A DNA stretch of 64,000 nucleotides from a virus: IMG/VR virus record IMGVR_UViG_3300045988_011398; one strand, written 5' to 3'. The notes under the pieces were generated by a model. That model saw nothing but the letters and a program-made list of their open reading frames with translations. It searched no databases and had not been told where the DNA came from. Positions 12,725 to 63,056 of the stretch are shown here, piece by piece. Made by a program: the position numbers and the translations under genes. Numbering within the stretch: position 1 is the stretch's first letter; every line of letters begins with the position of its first letter.

Positions 12725-14410
12725 TTATTCCTCTTTACTAAATGTATTACTTTGTCTCTTCTCAAGAGTATTGTACCTCTTATAGAATGCTTCCATAGTA
12801 GCATCAATAAGTGTGGTAGCCAACTCATCTTCTCCATTTTCCAAAGCTACTTTAATAGCCTGCTGTGCTCTACTGAATGTTCTGTTCTGGTCATCAAGCA
12901 ATTCAGTATCAAGTATTGCTGACCTTGTTTTACCTTTACTATCAGTAGAATTGATAATGAATCCCAAATCAGGGTCAAAATCTATATCAGCATCTGATGT
13001 GAAGTAATTATTCAAATCTTCAATATCTACCTCATCACCCTTCTTATTATCATCAAGTTCCCATAGACCAGTGCTATTAGACCTTCTATAATATGACCTT
13101 GTATTCTCTTTCAATACCTGAGTTATCAAGTCACTCTGAGTGATATTAGGCTTATAAGAAAAAGCTCTTACTGCACTACTTCTAATATCATTTTCAAGTT
13201 TTTGGGCAAGCTCTCCAAGATTACCTCCTGTCAATACACCGTCTGTTAGGGTATAACTTACATTTCCATATCTTTTTGATAACTCAGTTAATTTTTCTCT
13301 GTAAGGATAGTATGTTTCCTGCCTTGTAGGTCCTGTGCCAGTGTCTATCCAGAAATTAGTCATTGGGTCAGGATTTATCAAGTGAGGCTCTCTTACTGTC
13401 CTTGTAGATGCTTGGTCAAGTAAAGCTGGATTAGCCAGTACCTCTCTTAATACTTGCAGGTCAGTATTCATTTGAGTAGTCTTCTTGTCACCATCTACAG
13501 TAGTTTTAGGAACAGCTCTATAATAGAGTCTTGCTTTCTCTTCTGCCTCTTTTGCAGCTCTGGCTCTTGCCTCTTTATTTCTTGCAAGTTGGTCTTGCAT
13601 TGCATAGTCATAAGCCTTATTAGACTGTATCTGATATTGAGTCTCTCCTACTGCATTCCATAGTCCTTGTCTTGCATATTCATAAGCTCTATTAAGAGTG
13701 GCTTGGTCTCCCCAGCTTGATATATTTGAGCTACCTACTGCATCCTCAACAATACCTTTTAATACTGAAGAAGCATTAGGGTCATTCTGCAATACCTGAA
13801 TAATCTCTTCAGGTCTATATCCCTTCTGCATGATAGTTTCAAAGTACTGATTACCAAGAATAGTTCTCCACTTTCTTGGATTATCTCTCATTTCCTTAGC
13901 CAAGTTCTGAGCAGCAGTCCCTACTTGTTTTGCAAGAGTGGCACCTGAATATGATTGATATGTAAGTTGAGGATTCTTAATCAAATCATCAAGACTGAGC
14001 ATAGAGGCATTCCTATCAAACATAAGTGTGTTATCCTGTGCCAACAACTTTCTTTGCTCATCAATCAATTCCTGTCTTCTCTTATATGCCTGTTCTATAG
14101 GGACTATATCACTTGAGTATCTTTGCTTCATTCTCAGCATATTCTGTCTACTTGCAGGAGTAAGACCCTCTCTTGCTAATTGACCAGCCTGTTCCTCAAG
14201 GTCATTTGAATATGTCTTGTACATCTTGTAAGCATAAGGGTCAGTCTGCTCATTAGCCATTTCATCCCATACATTAGCCTTAGTTGCCAACTCAGCATAT
14301 TCATTCTCAACTTCCTGATGTGCCAATGTTGCCATTTGTACTGGCTGAAGCATCTCTGCATAAGAGAAAGGTTTGAATTTACTATTTACTACAATATAAT
14401 TTGCTGCCAT
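12725..14410 (-). CDS. Hypothetical virion-associated protein (561 aa)
   Basis: Long ORF abutting its neighbours (2-nt and 1-nt gaps) inside the structural operon. Charged, coiled-coil-like composition. No motif recognised. Confidence 0.6.
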   Translation of the reverse strand: MAANYIVVNSKFKPFSYAEMLQPVQMATLAHQEVENEYAELATKANVWDEMANEQTDPYAYKMYKTYSNDLEEQAGQLAREGLTPASRQNMLRMKQRYSSDIVPIEQAYKRRQELIDEQRKLLAQDNTLMFDRNASMLSLDDLIKNPQLTYQSYSGATLAKQVGTAAQNLAKEMRDNPRKWRTILGNQYFETIMQKGYRPEEIIQVLQNDPNASSVLKGIVEDAVGSSNISSWGDQATLNRAYEYARQGLWNAVGETQYQIQSNKAYDYAMQDQLARNKEARARAAKEAEEKARLYYRAVPKTTVDGDKKTTQMNTDLQVLREVLANPALLDQASTRTVREPHLINPDPMTNFWIDTGTGPTRQETYYPYREKLTELSKRYGNVSYTLTDGVLTGGNLGELAQKLENDIRSSAVRAFSYKPNITQSDLITQVLKENTRSYYRRSNSTGLWELDDNKKGDEVDIEDLNNYFTSDADIDFDPDLGFIINSTDSKGKTRSAILDTELLDDQNRTFSRAQQAIKVALENGEDELATTLIDATMEAFYKRYNTLEKRQSNTFSKEE

Positions 14411-48785: not shown

Positions 48786-48802
48786 AGCTTAACTAAAATT
48801 AG

Positions 48803-48872
48803 TTGCGGAGGTAGGAATTGAACCTACGGAGTCCAGCTTATGAGACTGGATTGAATACCAATTCTCCCCGCG
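48803..48872 (-). tRNA. tRNA-Met(CAT), irregular acceptor/D junction
   Basis: Anticodon arm CCAGT CTCATAA GCTGG and T arm GTAGG TTCAATT CCTAC. The acceptor is either 6 bp, or CGCGGGG/CTCCGCA with a C1xA72 mismatch. Confidence 0.6.
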
Positions 48873-48880
48873 ATGTTTAG

Positions 48881-48952
48881 TGCAGATAGACAGACTCGAA
48901 CTGTCACATTGACATTGGAAGTGTCACATACTGACCTTTATACTATACCTGC
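48881..48952 (-). tRNA. tRNA-Gly(TCC)
   Basis: Acceptor GCAGGTA/TATCTGC, anticodon arm TGACA CTTCCAA TGTCA, T arm GACAG TTCGAGT CTGTC. Confidence 0.8.
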
Positions 48953-48957
48953 ATTTG

Positions 48958-49030
48958 AGTAGATAACTGGATTTGAACCAGCCCCTTGACATTGGCAATG
49001 TCATATGCTAACCACTAACACCATACCTAC
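48958..49030 (-). tRNA. tRNA-Gly(GCC)
   Basis: Acceptor GTAGGTA/TATCTAC, anticodon loop TTGCCAA, T loop TTCAAAT, discriminator U. Confidence 0.8.
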
Positions 49031-49209
49031 ATAAAGCCAAAGATTTGCATCTGGTACTTTGGCATTGCAAGGTTTCACCTTAACTTGCACCCTCCTTCAC
49101 ATTCCACCCATATCCAGCTTGTTATAGTGTCAGCTCACTTTGGGGTTTCCATTGGACTAAGGAGTGTTAGCCTCTCACTGAATGGAATACAGCTTTTACT
49201 AACTTGTTG
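49031..49209 (-). other. 179-nt structured spacer inside the tRNA array (unassigned, possible ncRNA)
   Basis: No T-arm consensus, but several stable hairpins: GCCAAAG...CTTTGGC, AAGGT ttc ACCTT nested in GCAAG...CTTGC, and TTCCATT...AATGGAA. Confidence 0.3.
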
Positions 49210-49281
49210 AGGCTTCTGTCAGAATCGAACTGACATTACTGGGTTACAAAGCCAGTTTCCTAACCATTGAAAGAAGAAGCC
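49210..49281 (-). tRNA. tRNA-Thr(TGT)
   Basis: Acceptor GGCTTCT/AGAAGCC, T arm GTCAG TTCGATT CTGAC, anticodon loop TTTGTAA (31:39 C-C mismatch). Confidence 0.75.
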
Positions 49282-49285
49282 ATTG

Positions 49286-49369
49286 TAGCTCAAGAGGGAT
49301 TTGAACCCTCAATCCCTAAAGGGCGAGGGATTTTAAGTCCCTTGTGTATGCCAGTTCCACCATTGAGCC
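49286..49369 (-). tRNA. tRNA-Leu(TAA), type II
   Basis: Long variable arm, anticodon arm AGGGA CTTAAAA TCCCT, T arm GAGGG TTCAAAT CCCTC, G1:U72. Confidence 0.8.
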
Positions 49370-49377
49370 ATTATATA

Positions 49378-49830
49378 TTAATAAGGTCTAATATCACAAA
49401 GTTCAAATAGATACTTATACTTATTAATATTCTGAATGAATGTCTCACACTCTGAAGTAATACCTTTATATACAGTCTCCTGTGGTATCTTATCATAGAA
49501 TACTACAGTAGCACCTCTTACTTCATTTATGAAGTCTATAGCATTAAGAGTATCACTTGGAGTACCTTTTATAACATTAGGTTGCATCTTACCAAGTATT
49601 CCCATGTATCCTTCTGCAAGACTGTCTTGATAGTCTGAAAGTATGCTCAGAAATTCATCAAGATATACATGTATATTCTTCTTAGGTGCTGCCCAATGCA
49701 AGTTTTTACACTTTGTTTTCCACCCTTCAAGTCTATTCAAGAAGCTAATAAAGAACTCGGAAGGATTCATATTAGGGTCTTCTTGTTTCATTGTTTCAAG
49801 TGGTGTCAATAACATATCATCACCATACAT
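49378..49830 (-). CDS. Dps/ferritin-like four-helix protein (150 aa) embedded in the tRNA array
   Basis: KNLHWAAPKKNIHVYLDEF...DYQDSLAEGYMGILGK parallels the Dps signature (HW...H...D-x3-E ferroxidase ligands). Own promoter box at 49856-49863. Confidence 0.45.
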   Translation of the reverse strand: MYGDDMLLTPLETMKQEDPNMNPSEFFISFLNRLEGWKTKCKNLHWAAPKKNIHVYLDEFLSILSDYQDSLAEGYMGILGKMQPNVIKGTPSDTLNAIDFINEVRGATVVFYDKIPQETVYKGITSECETFIQNINKYKYLFELCDIRPY

Positions 49831-49855
49831 AAGCTTTATTGTTTATTTGATAATG

Positions 49856-49889
49856 CAAAGGTAAGTATTTTATTTGGAATATGCAAATA
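49856..49889 (-). promoter_or_regulatory. Bacteroidetes-type promoter (-7 TACCTTTG, -33 TTTGC)
   Basis: Gene-sense ATTTGCATATTCCAAATAAAATACTTACCTTTGCATTA, with the -7 box 26 nt upstream of the ATG at 49830. Confidence 0.65.
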
Positions 49890-49916
49890 AAATGCTAATT
49901 ATTTTTCAATTATTTG

Positions 49917-50005
49917 TACCCTCTGTGAGACTCGAACTCACACACTACTATTACTTCATCCCAGTTTCTAAGACTGGTGTGTCTACCAAATTCCACCAAG
50001 AGGGC
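49917..50005 (-). tRNA. tRNA-Leu(TAG), type II
   Basis: Anticodon arm CCAGT CTTAGAA ACTGG, T arm GTGAG TTCGAGT CTCAC, long variable region, G1:U72. Confidence 0.75.
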
Positions 50006-50011
50006 ATATTG

Positions 50012-50097
50012 TGCTCCTGAAGAGAGTCGAACTCTTAATCTCTATTTCAAGCCCTGACTTTTGAGGTCAGTGTGTATTCCAATTCCACCACAGGAGC
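50012..50097 (-). tRNA. tRNA-Leu(CAA), type II
   Basis: Acceptor GCTCCTG perfectly paired, anticodon arm CTGAC CTCAAAA GTCAG, T arm AAGAG TTCGACT CTCTT. Confidence 0.8.
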
Positions 50098-50103
50098 ATT
50101 ATG

Positions 50104-50179
50104 TGGGGACTCTGGGAATTGAACCACAAGCCTACAGTTTTTCAGACTGCCGTGCAATAACCACCTACACCAAGTCTCC
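50104..50179 (-). tRNA. tRNA-Phe(GAA)-like with a defective T stem
   Basis: Anticodon arm GCAGT CTGAAAA ACTGT is good. The T loop TTCAATT is flanked by only 2 clear base pairs. A3:C70 mismatch in the acceptor. Confidence 0.5.
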
Positions 50180-50247
50180 ATATTGACTTATTTGCATCTC
50201 TACCTGCATCACCTTCCATAAGTCAAGGACAAAAATTTCTATTGAAG

Positions 50248-50333
50248 TGGGAGTGGTAGGATTCGGACCTACTGAGTTTCTAATGTGCTGGTTTTACAGA
50301 CCAGTGCCCATCCACCATCTGAGCAGCACCCCC
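50248..50333 (-). tRNA. tRNA-Tyr(GTA), type II
   Basis: Acceptor GGGGGTG (one G:U), anticodon arm CTGGT CTGTAAA ACCAG, T arm GTAGG TCCGAAT CCTAC, long variable arm. Confidence 0.8.
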
Positions 50334-50341
50334 ATAATAAG

Positions 50342-50414
50342 TTCCCTCATAAGGAATCGAACCTTACTCTCAGGATTAAAAGTCCAGAGCATCCACCAAC
50401 AATGCTTTGAGGGA
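50342..50414 (-). tRNA. tRNA-Lys(TTT)
   Basis: Acceptor TCCCTCA/TGAGGGA, anticodon loop CTTTTAA, T arm TAAGG TTCGATT CCTTA. Confidence 0.75.
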
Positions 50415-50419
50415 ATATG

Positions 50420-50493
50420 TGCTCCCACAAGGACTCGAACCTTGAGTCCCCTGTTTAAGAGACAGGTGCTTTAACCAATTCAGCTATAGGAGC
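50420..50493 (-). tRNA. tRNA-Lys(CTT)
   Basis: Anticodon arm CCTGT CTCTTAA ACAGG, T arm CAAGG TTCGAGT CCTTG. Confidence 0.8.
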
Positions 50494-50500
50494 TTATAAG

Positions 50501-50575
50501 ACTTGGAGGTGGGATTTGAACCCACGAATCATCAGATTTGCAGTCTGTGCCCTTAGACCACTCAGGTACTCCAAG
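50501..50575 (-). tRNA. tRNA-Cys(GCA)
   Basis: Acceptor CTTGGAG/CTCCAAG, anticodon loop CTGCAAA, T arm GTGGG TTCAAAT CCCAC, discriminator U. Confidence 0.75.
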
Positions 50576-50579
50576 ATAG

Positions 50580-50651
50580 TACTGGTATAAGGACTTGAAC
50601 CTTCATCTTGAGTGTATAAGACTCCTGCACTAACCATTATGCTATACCAGT
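50580..50651 (-). tRNA. tRNA-Ile(TAT)
   Basis: Acceptor ACTGGTA/TACCAGT, anticodon loop CTTATAC (UAU anticodon, reads AUA), T loop TTCAAGT. Confidence 0.7.
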
Positions 50652-50658
50652 ATATTGG

Positions 50659-50730
50659 GGTGTCTGATGGGACTTGAACCCACACAATTTGGAGCCACAA
50701 TCCAAAGCTCTACCATTAAGCTACAGACAC
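50659..50730 (-). tRNA. tRNA-His(GTG)
   Basis: Acceptor GTGTCTG/CAGACAC, anticodon arm TTGGA TTGTGGC TCCAA, discriminator C. No G-1 is encoded. Confidence 0.75.
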
Positions 50731-50732
50731 AG

Positions 50733-50804
50733 TTCTGATGGATAGACTCGAACTATCAACTACTGCCTTATGAGAGCAGCTTTCTACCATTGAAATACAT
50801 CAGA
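50733..50804 (-). tRNA. tRNA-Met or Ile2 (CAT)
   Basis: Acceptor TCTGATG/CATCAGA, anticodon arm CTGCT CTCATAA GGCAG, T arm GATAG TTCGAGT CTATC. Confidence 0.75.
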
Positions 50805-50811
50805 ATATAAG

Positions 50812-50884
50812 TGGGCAAGTAAGGACTCGAACCTTCATTACTTGAATATCAGTCAAGCTTCCTGACCAATTAGAAGACATGCCC
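50812..50884 (-). tRNA. tRNA-Ile(GAT)
   Basis: Anticodon arm CTTGA CTGATAT TCAAG, T loop TTCGAGT, one U:U mismatch at 6:67. Confidence 0.7.
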
Positions 50885-50891
50885 ATTTTAG

Positions 50892-50964
50892 CTAAGGTGG
50901 CAGGACTTGAACCCACAACTGCTGGTTTTGGAGACCAGTGTTCTACCAATTGAACTACACCCTA
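50892..50964 (-). tRNA. tRNA-Trp(CCA)
   Basis: Anticodon arm CTGGT CTCCAAA ACCAG, T loop TTCAAGT, discriminator G. Confidence 0.8.
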
Positions 50965-50970
50965 ATTTAG

Positions 50971-51043
50971 TTGCAGGTAGTGGATTTGCACCACTGTTCC
51001 CCCCATTATGAGTGGGGCAAGATAACTACTTCTCCAACCTGCG
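50971..51043 (-). tRNA. tRNA-fMet-like (CAT) with a C1xA72 mismatch
   Basis: Acceptor CGCAGGT/ACCTGCA (C1 opposite A72, the bacterial initiator hallmark). Anticodon arm CCCCA CTCATAA TGGGG. Unusual T loop TGCAAAT. Confidence 0.7.
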
Positions 51044-51156
51044 GAAGAAACATCAAATCATGTGATTATGTCTCCTTATTGCACTCAGAGACTTTTCAGA
51101 AATGATGGCATCAAGTATTGCAAGCTACTTGACTGAACTTCTTGCAAAAGTTCTTG

Positions 51157-51228
51157 CGGGAAGTGTAGGACTCGAACCTACAGCCTGAGGATTAACAGTC
51201 CCCTGCTCTACCATTGAGCTAACAACCC
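51157..51228 (-). tRNA. tRNA-Asn(GTT) with two U:U mismatches in the acceptor stem
   Basis: Canonical D arm AGCTCAATGGTAGAGCA, anticodon loop CTGTTAA, T arm GTAGG TTCGAGT CCTAC. Acceptor GGGTTGT vs ACTTCCC. Confidence 0.6.
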
Positions 51229-51236
51229 ATTATTAG

Positions 51237-51310
51237 TTGCTCCTATTAGAATCGAACTAATGACCTTCTGTGTGTAAAACAGACATTCTGAACCACTGAA
51301 CTAAGGAGCA
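51237..51310 (-). tRNA. tRNA-Val(TAC)
   Basis: Acceptor TGCTCCT/AGGAGCA, anticodon arm TCTGT TTTACAC ACAGA, T arm ATTAG TTCGATT CTAAT. Confidence 0.8.
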
Positions 51311-51396
51311 ATGAAGGCAGTTTCTTTAATCTCTAACTGCCCAAAAGAGTGTCCAAAGCAAAAGCTCTAACATTATGAAAACATGAAAACAATGAG

Positions 51397-51469
51397 TGGA
51401 GAATGAGGGACTTGAACCCTAAACTCTTCTTTGCAAAAGAAGTGTGTTAGCCAATTACACCACAAACCC
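51397..51469 (-). tRNA. tRNA-Ala(TGC)-like with a poorly paired acceptor stem
   Basis: Anticodon arm CTTCT TTTGCAA AGAAG and D arm GTGT/ACAC are good, and G3:U70 is possible. Positions 4-7 of the acceptor are mismatched against ATTCTCC. Confidence 0.5.
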
Positions 51470-51475
51470 CATTAG

Positions 51476-51551
51476 TAGAGTAGACAAGACTCGAACTTGC
51501 AATATCACTGCATCCCAAATGCAGGGGGCTAACCAATTACCCTACTACTCT
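51476..51551 (-). tRNA. tRNA-Pro(TGG)
   Basis: Acceptor AGAGTAG/CTACTCT, anticodon arm CTGCA TTTGGGA TGCAG, T loop TTCGAGT. Confidence 0.75.
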
Positions 51552-51558
51552 ATATTTG

Positions 51559-51643
51559 CGGAGAGCATTGTACTCGAAACAAATGCCTTTTACAGCACAC
51601 ATTACTTAGCAGGTAAGTCCACTGCCTCAGTGGTTTACTCTCC
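51559..51643 (-). tRNA. tRNA-Ser(GCT), type II
   Basis: Anticodon loop CTGCTAA, long variable arm, T arm ATTGT TTCGAGT ACAAT, discriminator G. Confidence 0.75.
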
Positions 51644-51668
51644 ATTAATCAGCCTTTCAAAGAACATG

Positions 51669-51753
51669 CGGAGGAATGAGGTCCCGACCCCCAAGCATTT
51701 TACTGCTCAATCTGTTTTCAAGACAGTTCCCAGTCCCACTGAGTTACCCCTCC
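51669..51753 (-). tRNA. tRNA-Ser(TGA), type II, atypical T loop
   Basis: Anticodon loop CTTGAAA, variable arm AGCA...TGCT, discriminator G. T loop GTCGGGA deviates from the TTCRANY consensus. Confidence 0.6.
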
Positions 51754-51759
51754 ATTGGC

Positions 51760-51830
51760 AGGATGTGGGGGAATTGAACCCCAATCTCCTGATTGACAGT
51801 CAGGCACATTAACCACTATGCTACACACCC
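51760..51830 (-). tRNA. tRNA-Asp(GTC) with a 4-bp T stem
   Basis: Acceptor GGGTGTG/CACATCC (G3:U70), anticodon arm CCTGA CTGTCAA TCAGG, T arm GGGG TTCAATT CCCC. Confidence 0.65.
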
Positions 51831-51839
51831 TATAATATG

Positions 51840-51912
51840 TAGTGTCACTGAGAATTGAACTCAGATTTCCAGTTTGAGAGACTGGTTGCCTCACCATTTA
51901 GCAGATGACACC
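51840..51912 (-). tRNA. tRNA-Glu(CTC)
   Basis: Anticodon arm CCAGT CTCTCAA ACTGG, T arm CTGAG TTCAATT CTCAG. Confidence 0.8.
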
Positions 51913-51918
51913 ATTTAG

Positions 51919-51991
51919 TATTGGGTAGGAGACTTGAACTCCTCTCTTCAGATTGAAAGTCTGATGAACTGACCACCTATTCTAACCCAAC
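51919..51991 (-). tRNA. tRNA-Glu(TTC)
   Basis: Anticodon arm TCAGA CTTTCAA TCTGA, T arm AGGAG TTCAAGT CTCCT. Confidence 0.8.
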
Positions 51992-51998
51992 ATTTATG

Positions 51999-52070
51999 TA
52001 CCCCCTGAGGGAATCGAACCCCCATTAAAGGCTTAGAAGACCCTTGCATTATCCATTATACTAAGAGGGC
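51999..52070 (-). tRNA. tRNA-Arg(TCT)
   Basis: Anticodon loop CTTCTAA, T loop TTCGATT, acceptor GCCCTCT with two G:U pairs. Confidence 0.7.
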
Positions 52071-52078
52071 ATTTATTG

Positions 52079-52150
52079 TTGCTGTTAGAGGACTCGAACC
52101 TCTACTATAAGAGCCAAAATCTTATGTGACTACCATTACACCAAACAGCA
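52079..52150 (-). tRNA. tRNA-Gln(TTG)
   Basis: Acceptor TGCTGTT/AACAGCA, anticodon arm TAAGA TTTTGGC TCTTA, T arm AGAGG TTCGAGT CCTCT. First gene of the array. Confidence 0.8.
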
Positions 52151-53866: not shown

Positions 53867-54701
53867 ATTGTGTGCAATGTTTTATGATTCAATTAATTAA
53901 GTCTGTGAACTGAATGAAACTGGTTCACCTTATAAATTGAACTTATGCAGTGCTGTAGTCAGGTGAAGGTAGTAATGCAAAACCCCTCACTACTTTGCCA
54001 ATTTGAATCATCAACAAATCACCATCAATCTGTAATGTATAGCTAAATTTACTGAGTGCAACACAAAATCAAACTATTGATAACCTGATTAAATATCACC
54101 CCAATGCACAATATTGCCCAGTTTATTTGTGAATAATAGTAGCAAAAGACACCAAACACAGGGCTAAATGTGTGAGAGAACAAACTAATAATCCTATAAT
54201 CACTGATTAGTCATACATTATTTCTTATTTAGACTACTGAGGAGCATGACTTAATGAAAGTTAGCTGGGAAGTAAAGATACATACACCTCCAAGGACTGT
54301 GTGAGATTAAAAGGGTGATTTCATCACTCAGAATACATCAATAGCTTAGTGAGTGGAAAGGAATAGACTCAACTTAGAACCCAGAAACAAGTAATGAGTA
54401 AGATTGTGAACTGTGTATCCAATATTGTGTAGTAAAATAAAATATGATGTAGTAAAGTGGCACAGGTTTATGTTCAGTGCATTAAATAGGTAATGGAGAC
54501 TAAAGAGACATACATTATATAATAATATTGTCTTGGATAAAGTCTGACCTTCTATCTTTACAGGATTAATCAAGAGAACTACAAAGCACATTAGTTTAAT
54601 GGAAAACATTATTGAGGTATAGTACTTAATAATATGATGGTTCAAATCCATCATGTGCTTCAATTAACAAACAACAATCAATCAATCAAACTTTCAAACA
54701 A

Positions 54702-56383: not shown

Positions 56384-56457
56384 GCTGCCATAGCTCAATT
56401 GGATAGAGCAACAGACTTCTAATCTGTAGGTTCTGAGTTCGAGTCTCAGTGGTAGTA
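56384..56457 (+). tRNA. tRNA-Arg(TCT), second copy, + strand
   Basis: Acceptor GCTGCCA/TGGTAGT (two G:U), D arm GCTC AATTGGATA GAGC, anticodon arm ACAGA CTTCTAA TCTGT, T arm CTGAG TTCGAGT CTCAG. Confidence 0.8.
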
Positions 56458-56494
56458 CAACAATAAACAATTAAACAATTAAACATTTAATCTT

Positions 56495-56719
56495 ATGATG
56501 GTGATATTAAATTCCTCTGCTATATTAGAGGGAGTCAAAGATTTACAAGCAAATTCTATTAAAGAAGGGTTATTACTCTGTGCTGAGAATACTAAAAAGG
56601 CTAATGAATTTGAAGAAATATTGAAGAAATTCAATATCAAATATCAAAGATTTGGTCAAGGTACTCAATTTGAAATAAATTGTTGGTCTGTTAGTGCCTA
56701 TGATAATATAAATAGATAA
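56495..56719 (+). CDS. Hypothetical protein (74 aa)
   Basis: ORF at the start of a visibly more AT-rich stretch (~56470-58060). Confidence 0.45.
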   Translation: MMVILNSSAILEGVKDLQANSIKEGLLLCAENTKKANEFEEILKKFNIKYQRFGQGTQFEINCWSVSAYDNINR

Positions 56720-56721
56720 AT

Positions 56722-57183
56722 ATGGGACAGAAATGGCAATATTACGGTTTATTTCTTAATAAAGAGGCAAAAATACAATTATTTACAATGGTAGTAGCGA
56801 ATTTTTTGAATAATATTAAGAACCCCAACAAAGTATGTTTGGACCATTGTACTTTATTGCATAAATCTCAATTAGACAATGATAATACCATATTCCTTAA
56901 TAGATGTATAAAATCCAGACTTGATTATCTATTGGAGAATAATATAATCAGAGCTAAATTGATGATTACCTCAGTAGGTATATCTGAAAAAGCTATGGCT
57001 TTCAAAGTTATAATTCTTAATAATAATGAGGGAATATATGACTATGAAATCTGTGCTAACGAGATACCACATATTACTATTTGCACATTTAATGGTGGTA
57101 AGCCAGTAGATAGTAATAATATTGTTAAGTGGCATGATTTAGATGAGCCTATAGAGATTGAAACAACACTAAAAAGAGTATAA
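56722..57183 (+). CDS. 2H phosphoesterase superfamily protein (two HxT motifs), Acb1-like or LigT-like
   Basis: 153 aa. LDHCTLLH (H42-x-T44) and IPHITICT (H117-x-T119). Size and motif spacing are those of small 2H cyclic-nucleotide/2',3'-cyclic phosphodiesterases. Confidence 0.6.
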   Translation: MGQKWQYYGLFLNKEAKIQLFTMVVANFLNNIKNPNKVCLDHCTLLHKSQLDNDNTIFLNRCIKSRLDYLLENNIIRAKLMITSVGISEKAMAFKVIILNNNEGIYDYEICANEIPHITICTFNGGKPVDSNNIVKWHDLDEPIEIETTLKRV

Positions 57184-57184
57184 A

Positions 57185-57511
57185 ATGAAAATAACTTCAC
57201 TACAACAATTAAAAGACTGGAATAATCAATATGCTGTTGGTTCAACTTTTAGAAAAGAACATGATGAAGCTAAATTTCCTATCTTATTAGAATGGTTTCT
57301 TGATTGGTTCTTTGAAGAAGCTTTATTAGATATAGAAGTAGCAAGAGAGGCTTTTAATGAATATGTAAATTTTGCCTATATATGTACAGAGCTTCCACCA
57401 GAAGCTTCTCTTGGAAGGTGCTTACATAACCTTAATTATTGGTATGATAGAGCATCCTATTATAATTCAAGAGCAAAACAATTTAAGAAATTTAAGGCAG
57501 AGTGTTTATAA
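57185..57511 (+). CDS. Hypothetical protein (108 aa)
   Basis: ORF 1 nt after the upstream stop. Trp/Phe/Glu-rich. Confidence 0.45.
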   Translation: MKITSLQQLKDWNNQYAVGSTFRKEHDEAKFPILLEWFLDWFFEEALLDIEVAREAFNEYVNFAYICTELPPEASLGRCLHNLNYWYDRASYYNSRAKQFKKFKAECL

Positions 57512-57531
57512 ATTAATAATTTGATATACAA

Positions 57532-58065
57532 ATGAACAAGAAACTAAGATTGCTTGTTACGACAGATTGTCCTAACAAGTGCCCTATGTGCTGCAATAAT
57601 CAGTTTGATTTCAGCAAACTGCCTGTAGTAGATAGGTGGAATTATGATGAAATCATGATTACTGGAGGTGAACCTTTGTTGTTTACAGATACTTTAGTAG
57701 AGGTATTAATTTCCATAAAAGAATTAAGTTCTCTCACTGGAAACCATCCTAAACTATTTATTTATACTGCTGATTGCACTAACAAGATTATTAAAGTCTT
57801 ACCCCATGTTGATGGTATAGTACTTACTCCACACAAGCAATCAGATATTGTACACTTTATTGAACTAAATAAGTTCATACTTGTACATAAGACCCAATTT
57901 TATATCCGAGATACATCACTTAGATTAAATCTTTTTCCTGACATGAAAGCCCTCTTACCTAAAGATATTGATTTATCATTATGGGAAGTAAAAGATATGG
58001 AGTGGATAGAAAACTGTCCAGTTCCAGAGGGTGAGGACTTCAGGAGAATAGCTAATTTATGGTAA
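57532..58065 (+). CDS. Small radical-SAM enzyme (177 aa), NrdG/QueE-sized
   Basis: CPNKCPMC (CxxxCxxC) at residues 13-20 and IMITGGEPLLF (GGE SAM-binding motif). Confidence 0.6.
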   Translation: MNKKLRLLVTTDCPNKCPMCCNNQFDFSKLPVVDRWNYDEIMITGGEPLLFTDTLVEVLISIKELSSLTGNHPKLFIYTADCTNKIIKVLPHVDGIVLTPHKQSDIVHFIELNKFILVHKTQFYIRDTSLRLNLFPDMKALLPKDIDLSLWEVKDMEWIENCPVPEGEDFRRIANLW

Positions 58066-58391
58066 TAATTCAAAACAGAAATACAATGAGAAAATGGACA
58101 GAAGAGGATAAGAATATCCTCCTTGAGGAAATCTCAAATGACCCAAGTAACTTACAGAATGTCTTCAGAAGAACTGCTGAAAGAATAGGCAGGACTAAAG
58201 CCGCAGTTGCAACATACTGGTATCAGGTACTTGCTCCTAAGAACAGAAATAACAGGAGTAATACTGCATTCATGTCCTACAGTAAAGGCAGCATAAACAG
58301 CAATAGGAAAATATCCAGAGAGAATACTCAACAGCCTGTTGCAGTAAGAAGGAGCAAATGGAGAAGAATACTTGATATAATCTTTGAATAA
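58059..58391 (+). CDS. Myb/SANT-like DNA-binding protein (110 aa; possible start at the MRKW Met, 58086)
   Basis: RKWTEEDKNILLEEI...IGRTKAAVATYWYQVL has the W-x(18-20)-W Myb-repeat pattern. Basic C-terminus. Overlaps the upstream stop (ATGGTAA). Confidence 0.45.
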   Translation: MVIIQNRNTMRKWTEEDKNILLEEISNDPSNLQNVFRRTAERIGRTKAAVATYWYQVLAPKNRNNRSNTAFMSYSKGSINSNRKISRENTQQPVAVRRSKWRRILDIIFE

Positions 58392-58400
58392 GATTGGATT

Positions 58401-58725
58401 GGGGCATGATTTGGTTTTGATTGCTGATTATCAGGTAAGAGAACATGCAGAGACTGATGGAGAGACATCAAACAATTAACTGGCAATACTTCTTATAGAG
58501 TTGCTGCCTAAACATAGGCTGAGCAGCACTTGCTTGGAAACAGAAAGGTGCAATAGTGGTGGATTTTCCTTATTTATCTGACCCTGACAAGTTAAATAAG
58601 GTGGTGGAATGGTATGTCAATCCGGGCAACCCCAGTAGATAACCAACTGCACATCAAATAGGTAAGCATGTGAAATTCTTTTACAGGAGATTAGTAAGAC
58701 AGGGGTTCGAGTCCCCTATGCTCCA
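58401..58725 (+). ncRNA. ssrA: tmRNA (ssrA-like) with tag ORF GNTSYRVAA-stop
   Basis: 5' GGGGCATGATTTGGTTTTGATTGC matches the tmRNA 5' consensus. 3' GACAGGGGTTCGAGTCCCCTATGCTCCA gives a T arm plus acceptor. Acceptor GGGGCAT/ATGCTCC has G3:U70 (Ala identity). Internal frame GGC AAT ACT TCT TAT AGA GTT GCT GCC TAA lies at 58482-58511. CCA is not encoded. Confidence 0.85.
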
Positions 58726-58752
58726 CATTAAACTTAATTAATTCTTAAAACA

Positions 58753-58938
58753 ATGGGAGAAATTTCAGAGATGATTCTTGATGGCACATTAGATGCTGTC
58801 ACAGGAGAGTACATTGGTGAGCCTTGTGGTTATCCTCGAACCTATGTGAAGGATAGTGCCTATGCTTATGTGAGAAAGAGTAAGAGAGCAAGGCAAAGCA
58901 ACAAGCCTAAAGTAAAGAAAATGAGAAACAAATATTAA
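58753..58938 (+). CDS. Hypothetical protein (61 aa), basic C-terminus
   Basis: ORF 27 nt after the tmRNA 3' end. Confidence 0.45.
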   Translation: MGEISEMILDGTLDAVTGEYIGEPCGYPRTYVKDSAYAYVRKSKRARQSNKPKVKKMRNKY

Positions 58939-59429: not shown

Positions 59430-60839
59430 ATGAGTAAAGTAAATCCGTCATTGAAGAAAACCTCAAAGTTTGAGGAAGAAAGATTGGCTGGTGGTTCAGG
59501 TGCATTAGCAGCTAAACAGAGTAATGTTGCATTGTTGAGGAGAGCAGTATTAGCTAATCTTCTTTGGGAAGATGTAGCATACATGGATGGAATGAAGGTT
59601 GCTGAAGAAATTCAGAGATTGATTCCTTTGTGTCCTGCTGAAGATGTATATCACATTGCTCTTGAAGCAAGGACAATGCAGAAGTTAAGACATACTCCTT
59701 TATTCCTTGCAGTGGAAATGTGCAAGTATCCTGAGCATAAGAAGTTTGTGCAAGAATTGCTGCCTCAGATTATCACAAGAGCAGACATGCTTACTGATTT
59801 CTTGGCTATTTATTGGAGGGATGGTAAGAAACCTATTGCTAATCAAGCAAAGAAAGGTTTGGCAAAGGCATTCCATAATTTCAATGAATACAAGTTTGCT
59901 AAATATGATAGAGATGCAGCTATTAAGCTGAGAGATGTCATGTTCTTATGCAGACCTAAGCCTGAGAATCAGTATGAGCAGACTTTGTTCAAGAAGGTAG
60001 CAGATAGAACTCTTGCAACACCTGAGACATGGGAAGTGCTACTGTCTACTGGAAAGGATAAGAAAGAGTCTTGGGCTAAACTTATCACTGAAGGTAAGAT
60101 TGGTGGTCTGGCTATGTTGAGAAATATAGCCAACATGAGAAGAGCAAGTGTGGACAAGAAGGTGATTGAAGAAGGTCTTGAGAAGTTGAAATCTTCAATG
60201 CTCATGCCTTTGGACTTCTTGAAAGCAAATAAAATGAACCCTGAGTTCAGCAGACAGATAGAGGATGCTATGATAAGTAGCTATGCTAATTTGCCTGAGT
60301 TGAAAGGTAAGACTCTTTTCATTGTGGATGTGTCAGGTTCTATGCAAGCTCCAATGTCTGCAAAATCTGATTTCAGCAGATATGATGCAGCATGTGCTAT
60401 GGCTATGTTAGCAGCCAATCAGTGTGAGGACTATGAAATAGTTTGTACTGCTGGTAATGACTACTCTCATACAGGAGCACATGAGCATATTCCTTATCCT
60501 CAGAAAGGTTTTGGAATCTTTGAACAAATCCATAGCACTAATAGGAGAATTGGAGGTGGAGGTATATTCACCAGACAATGCCTTGAATGGTGTAATGACA
60601 AGTTCAAGGGTCAGAAGTTTGATAGAATCATTGTATTCTCAGACTCTCAAGACTGTGACTTGCCTGCAAGGAGAGTTCCTAAACCTTTTGGTACTTACAA
60701 CTATATTTGTGATGTGTCAGCACACACAAAAGGTGTAAACTACAGAGGTGCATGGACTGCTGAGATAAGTGGCTTCTCGGAGCATTTCATCACATTCATT
60801 GCAGCAATGGAAGGTATTCAGAATACCTTTGAAGAATAA
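59430..60839 (+). CDS. rsr: Ro60-like protein (TROVE domain + vWA domain with a MIDAS motif), Rsr ortholog candidate
   Basis: 469 aa. N-terminal RLAGGSGALAAKQSNVALLRRAVLANLLWEDVAY and VYHIALEARTMQKLRHTPLFLAVEM resemble TROVE signatures. C-terminal LFIVDVSGSMQAPMS (DxSxS MIDAS) and IIVFSDSQD indicate a vWA fold. A Y-RNA-like element starts 4 nt after the stop. Confidence 0.7.
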   Translation: MSKVNPSLKKTSKFEEERLAGGSGALAAKQSNVALLRRAVLANLLWEDVAYMDGMKVAEEIQRLIPLCPAEDVYHIALEARTMQKLRHTPLFLAVEMCKYPEHKKFVQELLPQIITRADMLTDFLAIYWRDGKKPIANQAKKGLAKAFHNFNEYKFAKYDRDAAIKLRDVMFLCRPKPENQYEQTLFKKVADRTLATPETWEVLLSTGKDKKESWAKLITEGKIGGLAMLRNIANMRRASVDKKVIEEGLEKLKSSMLMPLDFLKANKMNPEFSRQIEDAMISSYANLPELKGKTLFIVDVSGSMQAPMSAKSDFSRYDAACAMAMLAANQCEDYEIVCTAGNDYSHTGAHEHIPYPQKGFGIFEQIHSTNRRIGGGGIFTRQCLEWCNDKFKGQKFDRIIVFSDSQDCDLPARRVPKPFGTYNYICDVSAHTKGVNYRGAWTAEISGFSEHFITFIAAMEGIQNTFEE

Positions 60840-60842
60840 AAC

Positions 60843-60986
60843 AAAGAGTACTGTGTAGTGTTTTGTCAGACTTACTTCATTAACTAAGTGGTATAGTGCA
60901 AAACTTTTAATTTTGATGTCACAGGTTCGAGTCCTGTATGAGATTGGGGAAACCTAAGTCTGACATCTGTTCTCACAGTACTCTTT
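60843..60986 (+). ncRNA. YrlA-like Y RNA: a long terminal helix carrying an embedded tRNA-like cloverleaf
   Basis: Terminal 13-bp helix AAAGAGTACTGTG/CACAGTACTCTTT, an internal loop, then 10-bp GTCAGACTTA/TAAGTCTGAC. Inside: acceptor-like TTCAT/ATGAG, D arm ACTA AGTGGTA TAGT, anticodon-like arm CAAAA CTTTTAA TTTTG, T arm ACAGG TTCGAGT CCTGT. Confidence 0.65.
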
Positions 60987-60993
60987 TCAATAT

Positions 60994-61125
60994 GGAGGAG
61001 TTAGCTCAGTTGGTAGAGCACTTAAATGTTACTCTGTCAAATGTTCCATAGTAATATTGGTGGCAGATAGAGTTACTTCGGTATGTGGAACCAGTGGTCA
61101 TAGGTTCGAGTCCTATACTCCTCCC
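60994..61125 (+). ncRNA. tRNA-like RNA 1: canonical acceptor, D and T arms, with ~74 nt in place of the anticodon arm
   Basis: GGAGGAGT...ACTCCTCC (8 bp possible), D arm GCTC AGTTGGTA GAGC, T arm ATAGG TTCGAGT CCTAT. The insert contains stem ACTCTGTC/GATAGAGT, a GTAA-capped hairpin and the motif AGAGTTACTTCGGT. Confidence 0.55.
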
Positions 61126-61235: not shown

Positions 61236-61243
61236 CACAATAT

Positions 61244-61375
61244 GGGGATGTAGCTAAATAAATTCATACTCTTATGCCTTTTCTCTGGTAAAGCAGTAGT
61301 GTTTGTAAGAGTTACTTCGGTTATAGCATTTGTCTTGTAAACAAAAGTATATTGGTTCGAGTCCAATCATCCCCG
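61244..61375 (+). ncRNA. tRNA-like RNA 2, paralog of tRNA-like RNA 1
   Basis: Acceptor GGGGATG/CATCCCC, T arm ATTGG TTCGAGT CCAAT, degenerate D region. The insert has a covarying stem ACTCTTA/TAAGAGT followed by the same AGAGTTACTTCGGT motif. Same 5' flank CAATATGG as RNA 1. Confidence 0.55.
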
Positions 61376-62513: not shown

Positions 62514-63056
62514 ATGGCAGAATTTGTATATTTCAAGAATGCTTGTAGGATGTGGTATCCTGTAGGACAGTATTTCTCTTCAGATAACTTTGATTATATA
62601 AGAGAAGCTGCATCTTCCATTAATAAAGTATTCCCAACAGGTAAACTTATCTTGGTAGTAAGAGGACACTCAGGCTCCATACTTGCAGGTGGTATAGCAT
62701 ATATACTGAAAAGAAAAGACAGGGATGTATTAATATCTGTGTCAAGGAAAGCAGAATCTACTCATGGTGATAATCTTGAAGGTATATCATCATATACTGT
62801 ATCAGGTGACACACACATAATAGTTGTTGATGACTTTGTTCAAACAGGTGAAACTATTGAGGCTATACTCAAAGATTTGACTGAAAGAATAGAGGATATG
62901 AAAGTATTTGACATGTTATGTGTTGCTAATCACTGGGATGAGGATGATTTGACTGAGGAAGGAGGAAAGAGAGGAACTAACAGATATTGGGAGGCAAACA
63001 AAAGGATTGCTTCTCATTTTGAGTATATATTGTGTAACAGACCAGATGAGGAATGA
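62514..63056 (+). CDS. Type I phosphoribosyltransferase-fold protein (180 aa)
   Basis: PRPP-binding signature HIIVVDDFVQTGETI, upstream LILVVRGHSGSILAG loop. Confidence 0.55.
   Translation: MAEFVYFKNACRMWYPVGQYFSSDNFDYIREAASSINKVFPTGKLILVVRGHSGSILAGGIAYILKRKDRDVLISVSRKAESTHGDNLEGISSYTVSGDTHIIVVDDFVQTGETIEAILKDLTERIEDMKVFDMLCVANHWDEDDLTEEGGKRGTNRYWEANKRIASHFEYILCNRPDEE

Follow-up and report, generated by a model that had tools for sequence, protein, structure and literature searches.

Does a crAss-like phage carry its own ribosome-rescue RNA, and if so, what would become of the protein chains that this RNA tags? The question is raised by a 325-nucleotide (nt) element in a 64,000-nt stretch of viral DNA (IMG/VR record IMGVR_UViG_3300045988_011398; the whole stretch is called the window here), which a preliminary description had taken for a phage-borne transfer-messenger RNA (tmRNA, ssrA) gene. 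Both of the tmRNA detectors suggested there, ARAGORN and the Rfam covariance model RF00023, called a tmRNA. ARAGORN placed it at 58401-58726 on the + strand, with the tag peptide GNTSYRVAA* encoded by positions 82-111 of the gene, and RF00023 gave a full-length match (58401-58728, model positions 1-374) that scored 66.4 bits, where the gathering cutoff is 47; the E-value was 1e-23 for the whole window and 1e-25 locally. The match is far beyond chance. Judged from its sequence, the window gene is a genuine, conserved tmRNA gene carried by a crAss-like gut phage.

From G1 to the discriminator A the gene measures 325 nt (58401-58725, + strand), as delimited by ARAGORN, RF00023 and 52 homologous variants. 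Its 5' end reads GGGGCATGATTTGGTTTTGA and its 3' end AGGGGTTCGAGTCCCCTATGCTCCA, in keeping with the tmRNA 5' consensus and the 3' T arm and acceptor strand reported in the preliminary description. The 5' acceptor strand GGGGCAT (58401-58407) forms 7 bp with ATGCTCC (58718-58724), including the G3:U70 pair that had also been pointed out. In a 47-sequence alignment these seven pairs were 100% paired, with G:U at position 3 in every one of the 47 sequences, and two variants that have GGGGCTA with TAGCTCC carry a double compensatory change. The discriminator A (A73; gene position A325) lies at 58725 and is invariant among the homologues; both alanine identity elements, G3:U70 and A73, are present. 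The discriminator is followed by CAT, such that the CCA end is not fully encoded beyond its first C. The same was true of 9 of 9 Bacteroides ssrA genes examined, and post-transcriptional CCA addition is therefore expected for the phage RNA.

By its gene content, the window is from a crAss-like phage (Crassvirales, Steigviridae-like) of Bacteroidales. Pfam searches identified the Crassvirus major capsid protein (Crass_capsid, 755 bits) as well as CrAss_Ring_1/2/3_4, the tail hub families crAss_THA and crAss_THB, crAss_AuxCP and crAss_CARGO2, and the presence of these crAss-specific capsid and tail families in the same window agrees with the claim that the tmRNA is phage-borne. In GenBank, the closest genomes belong to Steigviridae or to allied records (bajarodcaudo virus 1, cr85_1, cr128_1 and PhiCrAssBcn isolates); since the identity is only ~76-78%, over part of the query, the phage represents a new species or genus of the Steigviridae-type group.

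The tmRNA gene lies within a + strand gene block, where an open reading frame (ORF) at 58059-58391 ends 9 nt upstream and another (58753-58938) begins 27 nt downstream. The spacing to the upstream ORF was given correctly in the preliminary description, but the Myb-like assignment of that ORF is weak (PF00249, 19.5 bits, below the cutoff of 24.4). A sigma-70 scan next to the tmRNA remained at background level, no + strand terminator was found close to it, and the Bacteroides -7 motif TAnnTTTG was absent from the + strand between 56842 and 59392; window-wide, this motif was no more frequent than in shuffled sequence. Since neither a promoter nor a terminator of its own was found, we infer that the tmRNA is probably co-transcribed with the block and then excised by tRNA-processing enzymes. 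Two antisense ORFs that overlie the gene (58270-58446 and 58328-58486, - strand) were treated as mechanical.

When we searched 50,697 phage records by blastn, the tmRNA was found in just three genomes, cr106_1, cr128_1 and Kehishuvirus tikkala, and no similarity to any phage beyond crAss-like relatives was seen. The cr106_1 gene is already annotated in GenBank as 'transfer-messenger RNA, SsrA', nothing is annotated at the cr128_1 tmRNA locus, and in K. tikkala, which has been cultured on Bacteroides cellulosilyticus, the locus carries the annotation of two hypothetical proteins, which correspond to antisense ORFs comparable to those in the window. A pattern scan of IMG/VR yielded 58 contigs, mostly 50-104 kb long and in several cases close to a full crAss genome (about 90-104 kb). 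Together with the GenBank sequences and the window they gave 52 distinct sequences, all in crAss-like contigs.

These homologues fall into size classes of 300-316, 325, 377-388 and 439-450 nt, with the 325-nt class represented by the window gene alone, and the variation between 300 and 450 nt reflects the gain or loss of 60-130-nt blocks between pseudoknot 2 (PK2) and a central hairpin (both described below). All eight intact relatives tested, which span the tested size classes, passed the RF00023 cutoff. The longest class was missed by ARAGORN, and the four members tested (L007, L009, L024 and L048) exceeded the RF00023 cutoff. Of the 58 IMG/VR loci, 15 received no tmRNA call from ARAGORN, and L043 was assigned a wrong frame; the 15 misses comprise eight intact genes of 439-450 nt, five genes split by an intron, L004, in which the 3' end is broken, and L053, which is truncated where its locus ends. 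As a separate observation, the 5' part of the window's 325-nt form resembles the clade with the tag GNTSYRVAA, and its central part is shared with L030.

Secondary structure and intron-split copies

We wrote the secondary structure from the Rfam alignment and by inspection, and counted pairing on the alignment of 47 sequences. Overall, 92.5% of the cells were paired, compared to 40-48% when the 3' partner was slid by 1-3 columns, and 26 of 72 pairs had changed on both sides, a number reached in 0 of 500 shuffles. The acceptor helix P1, the P2a-c helices and the T arm were 98.8-100% paired, with 11 pairs changed on both sides. P2, which stands in place of an anticodon arm in the tRNA-like domain, is a long helix with 5' strands at 58421-58429 (P2a), 58431-58442 (P2b) and 58443-58448 (P2c), and with 3' partners at 58689-58697, 58677-58688 and 58666-58671, respectively, all on the + strand. 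Its 27 pairs were 98.8-100% paired and seven of them had changed on both sides; the window's P2b has a tandem A.G/G.A in place of two pairs. The T arm, AGGGG-TTCGAGT-CCCCT (58701-58717), was 100% paired and four of its five pairs had changed on both sides, the 5' strand reading AGGGG, AAGGG, GAGGG, TTGGG or TCCAG, each with a matching 3' strand.

Upstream of the tag, at the usual site of the first pseudoknot (PK1), there is a small hairpin, GATG / CATC (58456-58469), which was 99.5% paired and shows an A:U to U:A swap of one pair in five sequences. The PK1 region measures 34 nt, compared to 49 nt in Bacteroides. Neither inspection by hand nor an all-against-all scan of column pairs revealed a second PK1 stem, and only the 4-bp hairpin is supported. 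A candidate for a full PK1, based on G/A co-variation at positions 50 and 62, was rejected, as the two positions carry the same base rather than a pair; the pattern probably reflects shared ancestry.

Downstream, a P5 hairpin (GCC / GGC, 58506-58519; 98.6% paired, nearly invariant) holds the tag stop codon in its loop. It is followed by PK2 (58521-58551), in which stem 1 (58521-58524/58532-58535) and stem 2 (58526-58529/58548-58551), with an A-rich loop between, were 100% paired, with C:G replaced by U:A in 21 sequences and G:C by U:A or A:U in four. A variable central hairpin, CCTTATTTA / TAAATAAGG (58568-58601), was read from the sequence; its column counts are poor owing to indels, and the 60-130-nt insertions of relatives lie just 5' of it. 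A second supported pseudoknot lies at 58605-58628 (stem 1, 58605-58608/58621-58624; stem 2, 58615-58618/58625-58628) and was 92.1% paired, compared to 24-51% with the partner slid, with five of eight pairs changed on both sides. Just before the P2 return strand there is a hairpin, GTAG / CTGC (58635-58650; 98.9% paired, three of four pairs changed on both sides). Thus, two pseudoknots with covariation support follow the tag and the remaining elements were seen only as hairpins, whereas a typical tmRNA has four pseudoknots, PK1 before the tag and PK2-PK4 after it. The preliminary description had named the absence of pseudoknot and tag-frame features as grounds for giving up the tmRNA assignment; we found a conserved frame, two supported pseudoknots and, at the PK1 position, a hairpin only.

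A group I intron (RF00028, 86-88 bits) interrupts the tmRNA gene of six relatives (cr128_1, L014, L036, L040, L050 and L061). This intron occupies 4001-5317 in L003 (cr128_1), is 1317-1318 nt long in L014, L036, L040 and L050, and occupies 13157-14362 (1206 nt) in L061. It is inserted after the second T-loop nucleotide (GGGTT / intron / CGAATCCC), with U as the base at -1 and G as the final intron base. This insertion site corresponds to 'position 3' among the intron-form tmRNA genes of PMC11915505, a position seen only in the class Bacteroidia, and the split relatives exceed the longest tmRNA gene listed in that study (1152 bp). The window copy is without an intron, as no RF00028 match was found in the window and the T loop is contiguous. 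The cr128_1 intron contains an antisense ORF of 186 amino acids (aa) with a zf-FCS match and, judged by eye, an apparent HNH-like DRIDxxKGY motif.

The tag, its likely fate and probable dependence on the host

The tag frame, GGC AAT ACT TCT TAT AGA GTT GCT GCC TAA (58482-58511, + strand), encodes (A)GNTSYRVAA according to both ARAGORN and the variant table, which is the peptide given in the preliminary description. A TAA (58477-58479) stands 2 nt before the resume codon, and this TAA and the 2 nt are invariant. Among the 52 variants, the commonest tags were DNTYRVAA (23), GNTSYRVAA (15) and GNTYRAAA (7), and DNTSYRVAA, DNTYKVAA, GNTSYKVAA, GNTSYRAAA, GNSYRVVA, GTSYKMAA and AEVDYTPVRMAA occurred once each. 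The pattern [G/D]NT(S)Y[R/K][V/A/M]AA was found in 49 of the 52, and the other three keep the C-terminal end. Changes within the frame include synonymous ones (AAT/AAC, GCT/GCA/GCC and AGA/AGG) as well as TAA to TGA at the stop codon in two different tag backgrounds. At position -4, R has changed to K three times and AGA to AGG once, leaving a basic residue (R/K) in 52 of 52; position -3 is V, A or M. The frame therefore looks to be under selection as a peptide, and the invariably basic -4 residue indicates that it is not a random substitution.

All nine Bacteroides genomes that we read encode the host tag GETNYALAA, in ssrA genes of 395-396 nt. Compared to these genes, the phage frame has the same length and the same G-x3-Y-x-hydrophobic-A-A pattern, as the preliminary description had maintained, with E replaced by N, A by R at -4 and L by V at -3. 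The host's acidic Glu is lost, and the net charge shifts from -1 to +1. In E. coli, the last three residues of the tag are the main determinant for ClpX, and tag position 8 reportedly matters for ClpA but not for ClpX. Most likely, the [V/A/M]AA end has remained a functional C-terminal degron, read by a protease of the ClpXP type. GETNYALAA is the native tag of Bacteroides and a very strong degron there (10.1101/2025.03.18.644028). The native Caulobacter ssrA tag AANDNFAEEFAVAA also ends in VAA (PMC9393093), and Val alone is thus no argument against degradation.

The coding regions of the phage place an unusual load on arginine tRNAs. The window is strongly depleted of CpG (observed/expected 0.04, with 91 CG in 64 kb at 36.5% GC), compared to 1.07 in Bacteroides loci; the median for related crAss-like loci was 0.08. 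As a result of the depletion, its 856 Arg codons are almost all AGA (82%) or AGG (17%), with 1% CGN; the combined share of AGA and AGG is thus 99%, vs. 24% in Bacteroides loci. Our literature search on CpG depletion in crAssphage found nothing relevant. The tRNA-Arg(TCT) gene is present twice in the window, once at 56384-56458 (+ strand, ARAGORN), 2 kb upstream of the tmRNA, with five ORFs (56495-58391) in between. In most relatives (L005-L060), the tmRNA is likewise preceded by tRNA-Arg(CCT) and/or tRNA-Arg(TCT) in the same orientation, in many cases at a distance of no more than a few hundred bases. We also noted that the Arg codon of the tag itself is AGA or AGG.

A Pfam scan detected no SmpB among the 48 window ORFs. 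With E. coli SmpB as a tblastn query, the best E-value in the window was 0.35 and nothing was found in 61 phage loci; as a control, the query gave a 100% match to annotated SmpB genes. In the phage collection, where cr106_1, cr128_1 and tikkala are represented by complete genomes, 73 records matched SmpB at E-values up to 10 (66 of them over at least 80% of the protein), and there were no Crassvirales records among them; the SmpB genes in that collection belong to prophage-edge records, Lak megaphages and huge phages. Given that no SmpB was found in the phage, the RNA would have to use host SmpB.

We favor, with a probability of roughly 0.75, the interpretation that the crAss-like phage carries a functional tmRNA gene, which would provide host-dependent ribosome rescue and whose tag would serve as a degron. 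In this scheme, the RNA would be transcribed within the + strand block, the tRNA-processing enzymes of the host would release it, its CCA end would be completed by the host, and the host alanyl-tRNA synthetase would charge it with alanine by way of the observed G3:U70 and A73. Host SmpB and EF-Tu would then deliver it to ribosomes that have stalled, either on reaching the 3' end of a broken mRNA or at a hungry codon. By analogy with known tmRNA biology, translation would resume at GGC (58482), AGNTSYRVAA would be added, and termination at TAA would free the ribosome. The phage may benefit in that ribosomes are kept available while mRNA is being degraded and tRNA-Arg(UCU/CCU) is heavily loaded. 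Rare Arg codons and tRNA scarcity reportedly trigger ssrA tagging.

Several observations weigh against this interpretation. PK1, commonly regarded as the most important of the pseudoknots, is represented by no more than a hairpin of 4 bp, and the tag itself includes an AGA codon. The link to Arg-codon stalling and mRNA decay is circumstantial. The gene is absent from crAss001 and from 25 PhiCrAssBcn isolates and is thus accessory, and the window represents 64 kb out of a genome of ~100 kb. Finally, the only cultured carrier, tikkala, has a copy (L002 4001-4292; OQ198717 87750-88041) that fails both ARAGORN and Rfam and whose 3' end, GTCCAACCATCCCCA, cannot form the T or acceptor stem. That end is similar to the 3' terminus of a tRNA-like gene at 61238-61375 in the window (GTCCAATCATCCCCG), which points to a chimera formed by recombination or to an error in the sequence. 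L004, whose 3' part is truncated and cannot pair, fails both programs as well.

The preliminary description had raised the possibility that the Arg and Val substitutions change how host proteases or adaptors recognize the tag. If so, ribosomes would be rescued, but the fate of a Y-[R/K]-[V/A/M]-A-A tag would differ from that of the host tag, as chains might evade the protease or adaptor on which the host mainly relies for ssrA tags, or pass to another one; the phage could gain because host proteolysis is not saturated, or because the tagged products are kept or redirected. The basic -4 residue, preserved in every variant through R/K exchange and synonymous AGG where Bacteroides has Ala, and the loss of the host's Glu with its reversal of net charge would both suit such a specialization. 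However, the tag still ends in hydrophobic-Ala-Ala, a native degron of Caulobacter has the ending VAA (PMC9393093), and the Pfam scan of 48 window ORFs showed no protease or adaptor gene. A specialized tag is therefore allowed by the basic residue but not required by it, and we regard it as unlikely.

Neighboring RNA-related genes and the remaining explanations

The tmRNA shares its surroundings with other genes of RNA metabolism. An ORF of 153 aa, 1.2 kb upstream (56722-57183, + strand), resembles 2H cyclic phosphodiesterases (PF08302 tRNA_lig_CPD, 36.3 bits, cutoff 23), which suggests a role in RNA end healing. Downstream, a TROVE/Ro60 gene with a vWA domain (59430-60839, + strand; PF05731, 51.9 bits; phrog_850, E 1e-35) and, directly 3' of it, a YrlA-like RNA of 140 nt (about 60846-60987, + strand) were found, and ARAGORN detected 27 tRNA genes at 48802-52150 on the - strand. 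The Ro60 gene and the large tRNA set had both been attributed to the same island in the preliminary description, and both were recovered here.

The YrlA-like RNA has the YrlA architecture: its tRNA-like module (60874-60945, called as tRNA-Lys) sits inside a long terminal stem that is broken by an internal loop. It scored 20.8 bits with the Rfam YrlA model against a cutoff of 69 and had a fold z of -3.5. Additional tRNA-like genes were noted on the + strand. One at 54585-54661 was given a four-base 'anticodon', atag, by ARAGORN (Rfam tRNA, 47 bits); in its fold (z = -4.3) the anticodon stem has 9 bp and the loop 8 nt, and comparable odd tRNAs occupy the same relative position in L008, L010, L041 and L053. 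In another, at 60995-61124, ~70 nt replace the anticodon loop (tRNA model, 46 bits). The gene at 61238-61375 mentioned above has the acceptor GGGGATG / CATCCCC, with an insertion after the 5' acceptor strand and a partial tRNA match of 34 bits. Two further + strand ORFs are a 177-aa one at 57532-58065, which contains a CxxxCxxC motif and weakly matches radical-SAM proteins (phrog_31524, E 4e-19; below the cutoff in Pfam), and a phosphoribosyltransferase-like one of 180 aa at 62514-63056 (PF00156, 26.4 bits, at the cutoff).

These neighbors would fit a broader scheme, in which the tmRNA is part of an island for translation maintenance and RNA damage and its tag gives chains a non-host fate. The near-complete tRNA set, the extra tRNA-Arg(UCU), the 2H phosphodiesterase and the Ro60/YrlA-like pair would be the other parts of the island, and the non-host fate could mean either a protease or adaptor other than the one that recognizes the GETNYALAA degron or escape from degradation. 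If true, the island would enable translation of a phage genome that is CpG-free and uses AGA/AGG only, and would protect the phage from host defenses that cleave RNA. We consider this larger proposal doubtful, to about the same degree as the specialized tag.

The dependence on host SmpB could also be read in the opposite sense, with the RNA acting mainly to titrate SmpB or otherwise to inhibit host trans-translation. Lacking a phage SmpB in our searches, the RNA must compete for the host protein; its PK1 is reduced, and inhibition by a DS6A-type ssrA that has a tRNA-like domain only is documented (PMC4131195, PMC11915505). Such a sponge, however, needs no frame, whereas the phage RNAs conserve the frame together with its resume context, its stop and the pattern of the peptide, with synonymous and stop-to-stop changes, and P5 and PK2 are kept by compensatory changes. 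Because the tag frame is conserved, we consider titration very unlikely.

That the gene is a mere passenger without a role in infection, be it a captured host ssrA, an integration-site remnant or an intron landing pad, has least to recommend it and is in our view hardly credible: its patchy distribution within the subfamily, the broken copies in tikkala and L004, the group I introns with an endonuclease-like ORF and the size range of 300-450 nt would suit a passenger, but both gene ends are present and pair, 2 of the 91 CpG sites of the window are kept inside the gene under a genome-wide purge (32 of the 91 lie within 2.9 kb of tRNA, tmRNA and tRNA-like genes), and the strong covariation argues against decay. 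We likewise rejected a recent capture of host ssrA or an att fragment, as both ends are present and just 62-73% of positions match any of 103 Bacteroidota ssrA sequences, which points to an old phage lineage.

Relation to known tmRNA systems

Phage tmRNA is already known as a kind, and a relative of the window gene is annotated in GenBank (MT774378). Complete tmRNA genes of virulent mycobacteriophages (the Bxz1 group) and of Bacillus phage G have been known for two decades (PMC4131195), and 79 unique phage tmRNA sequences were catalogued in the 2025 tmRNA database (PMC11915505). Our search for literature on tmRNA in crAss-like phages or Crassvirales found no discussion of it, only mentions of ARAGORN or Pharokka in methods, and the text supplements of the database paper (PMC11915505) contain no cr106, crAss or tag strings. 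The family-level picture, with its size classes, reduced PK1, basic tag residue, lack of SmpB and intron-split copies, may therefore be undescribed.

The gain is incremental, as phage tmRNAs are known, one relative is annotated and the only cultured carrier is seemingly damaged. Nevertheless, crAss-like phages are among the most abundant human gut viruses and their takeover of host translation is little understood; one branch of them appears to carry its own ribosome-rescue RNA while relying on host SmpB. The natural variation of the tag offers a ready mutational series for how Bacteroides reads ssrA degrons, one that could be useful to synthetic biology in Bacteroides, for which the strength of the native tag is excessive (10.1101/2025.03.18.644028).

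Among phages, the Bxz1 group and phage G belong to families and have hosts unrelated to those of the crAss-like carrier. Huge phages carry tmRNA together with SmpB (PMC7162821). They and the Lak megaphages share phage-encoded ribosome rescue with the window phage, partly in phages of Bacteroidales (Prevotella), but they encode SmpB in genomes of >200 kb, whereas the crAss-like phages, at ~100 kb, are without it. The DS6A-type ssrA has no mRNA-like domain; in contrast, the window gene has a full conserved tag frame. A relative that is already annotated is the tmRNA of cr106_1 (MT774378 / NC_055871, Mahstovirus faecalis), which belongs to the same family (79% identity over 99% of the query) and likewise has a tRNA-Arg upstream and a TROVE gene downstream. 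Its tag is DNTYRVAA. It differs in having GAC (Asp) as the resume codon and no Ser codon, in its length of 302 nt vs. 325 nt in the window and in having another central hairpin.

We also aligned the phage gene with host ssrA, as the preliminary description had proposed. The phage gene is shorter than Bacteroides ssrA (325 vs. 395 nt), with a hairpin for PK1 and a shortened central pseudoknot region, and 67% of its positions match B. faecis and at most 73% any of the 103 Bacteroidota ssrA sequences. The two nevertheless have in common a tRNA-like domain with G3:U70 and A73, the P2 motifs GGUAAG...CAUGCAG / UAAGCAUGU-GAAA, a resume codon GGC after CUG, nine encoded tag residues of the pattern G-x3-Y-x-hydrophobic-A-A, and a CCA end that is encoded only as far as its first C.

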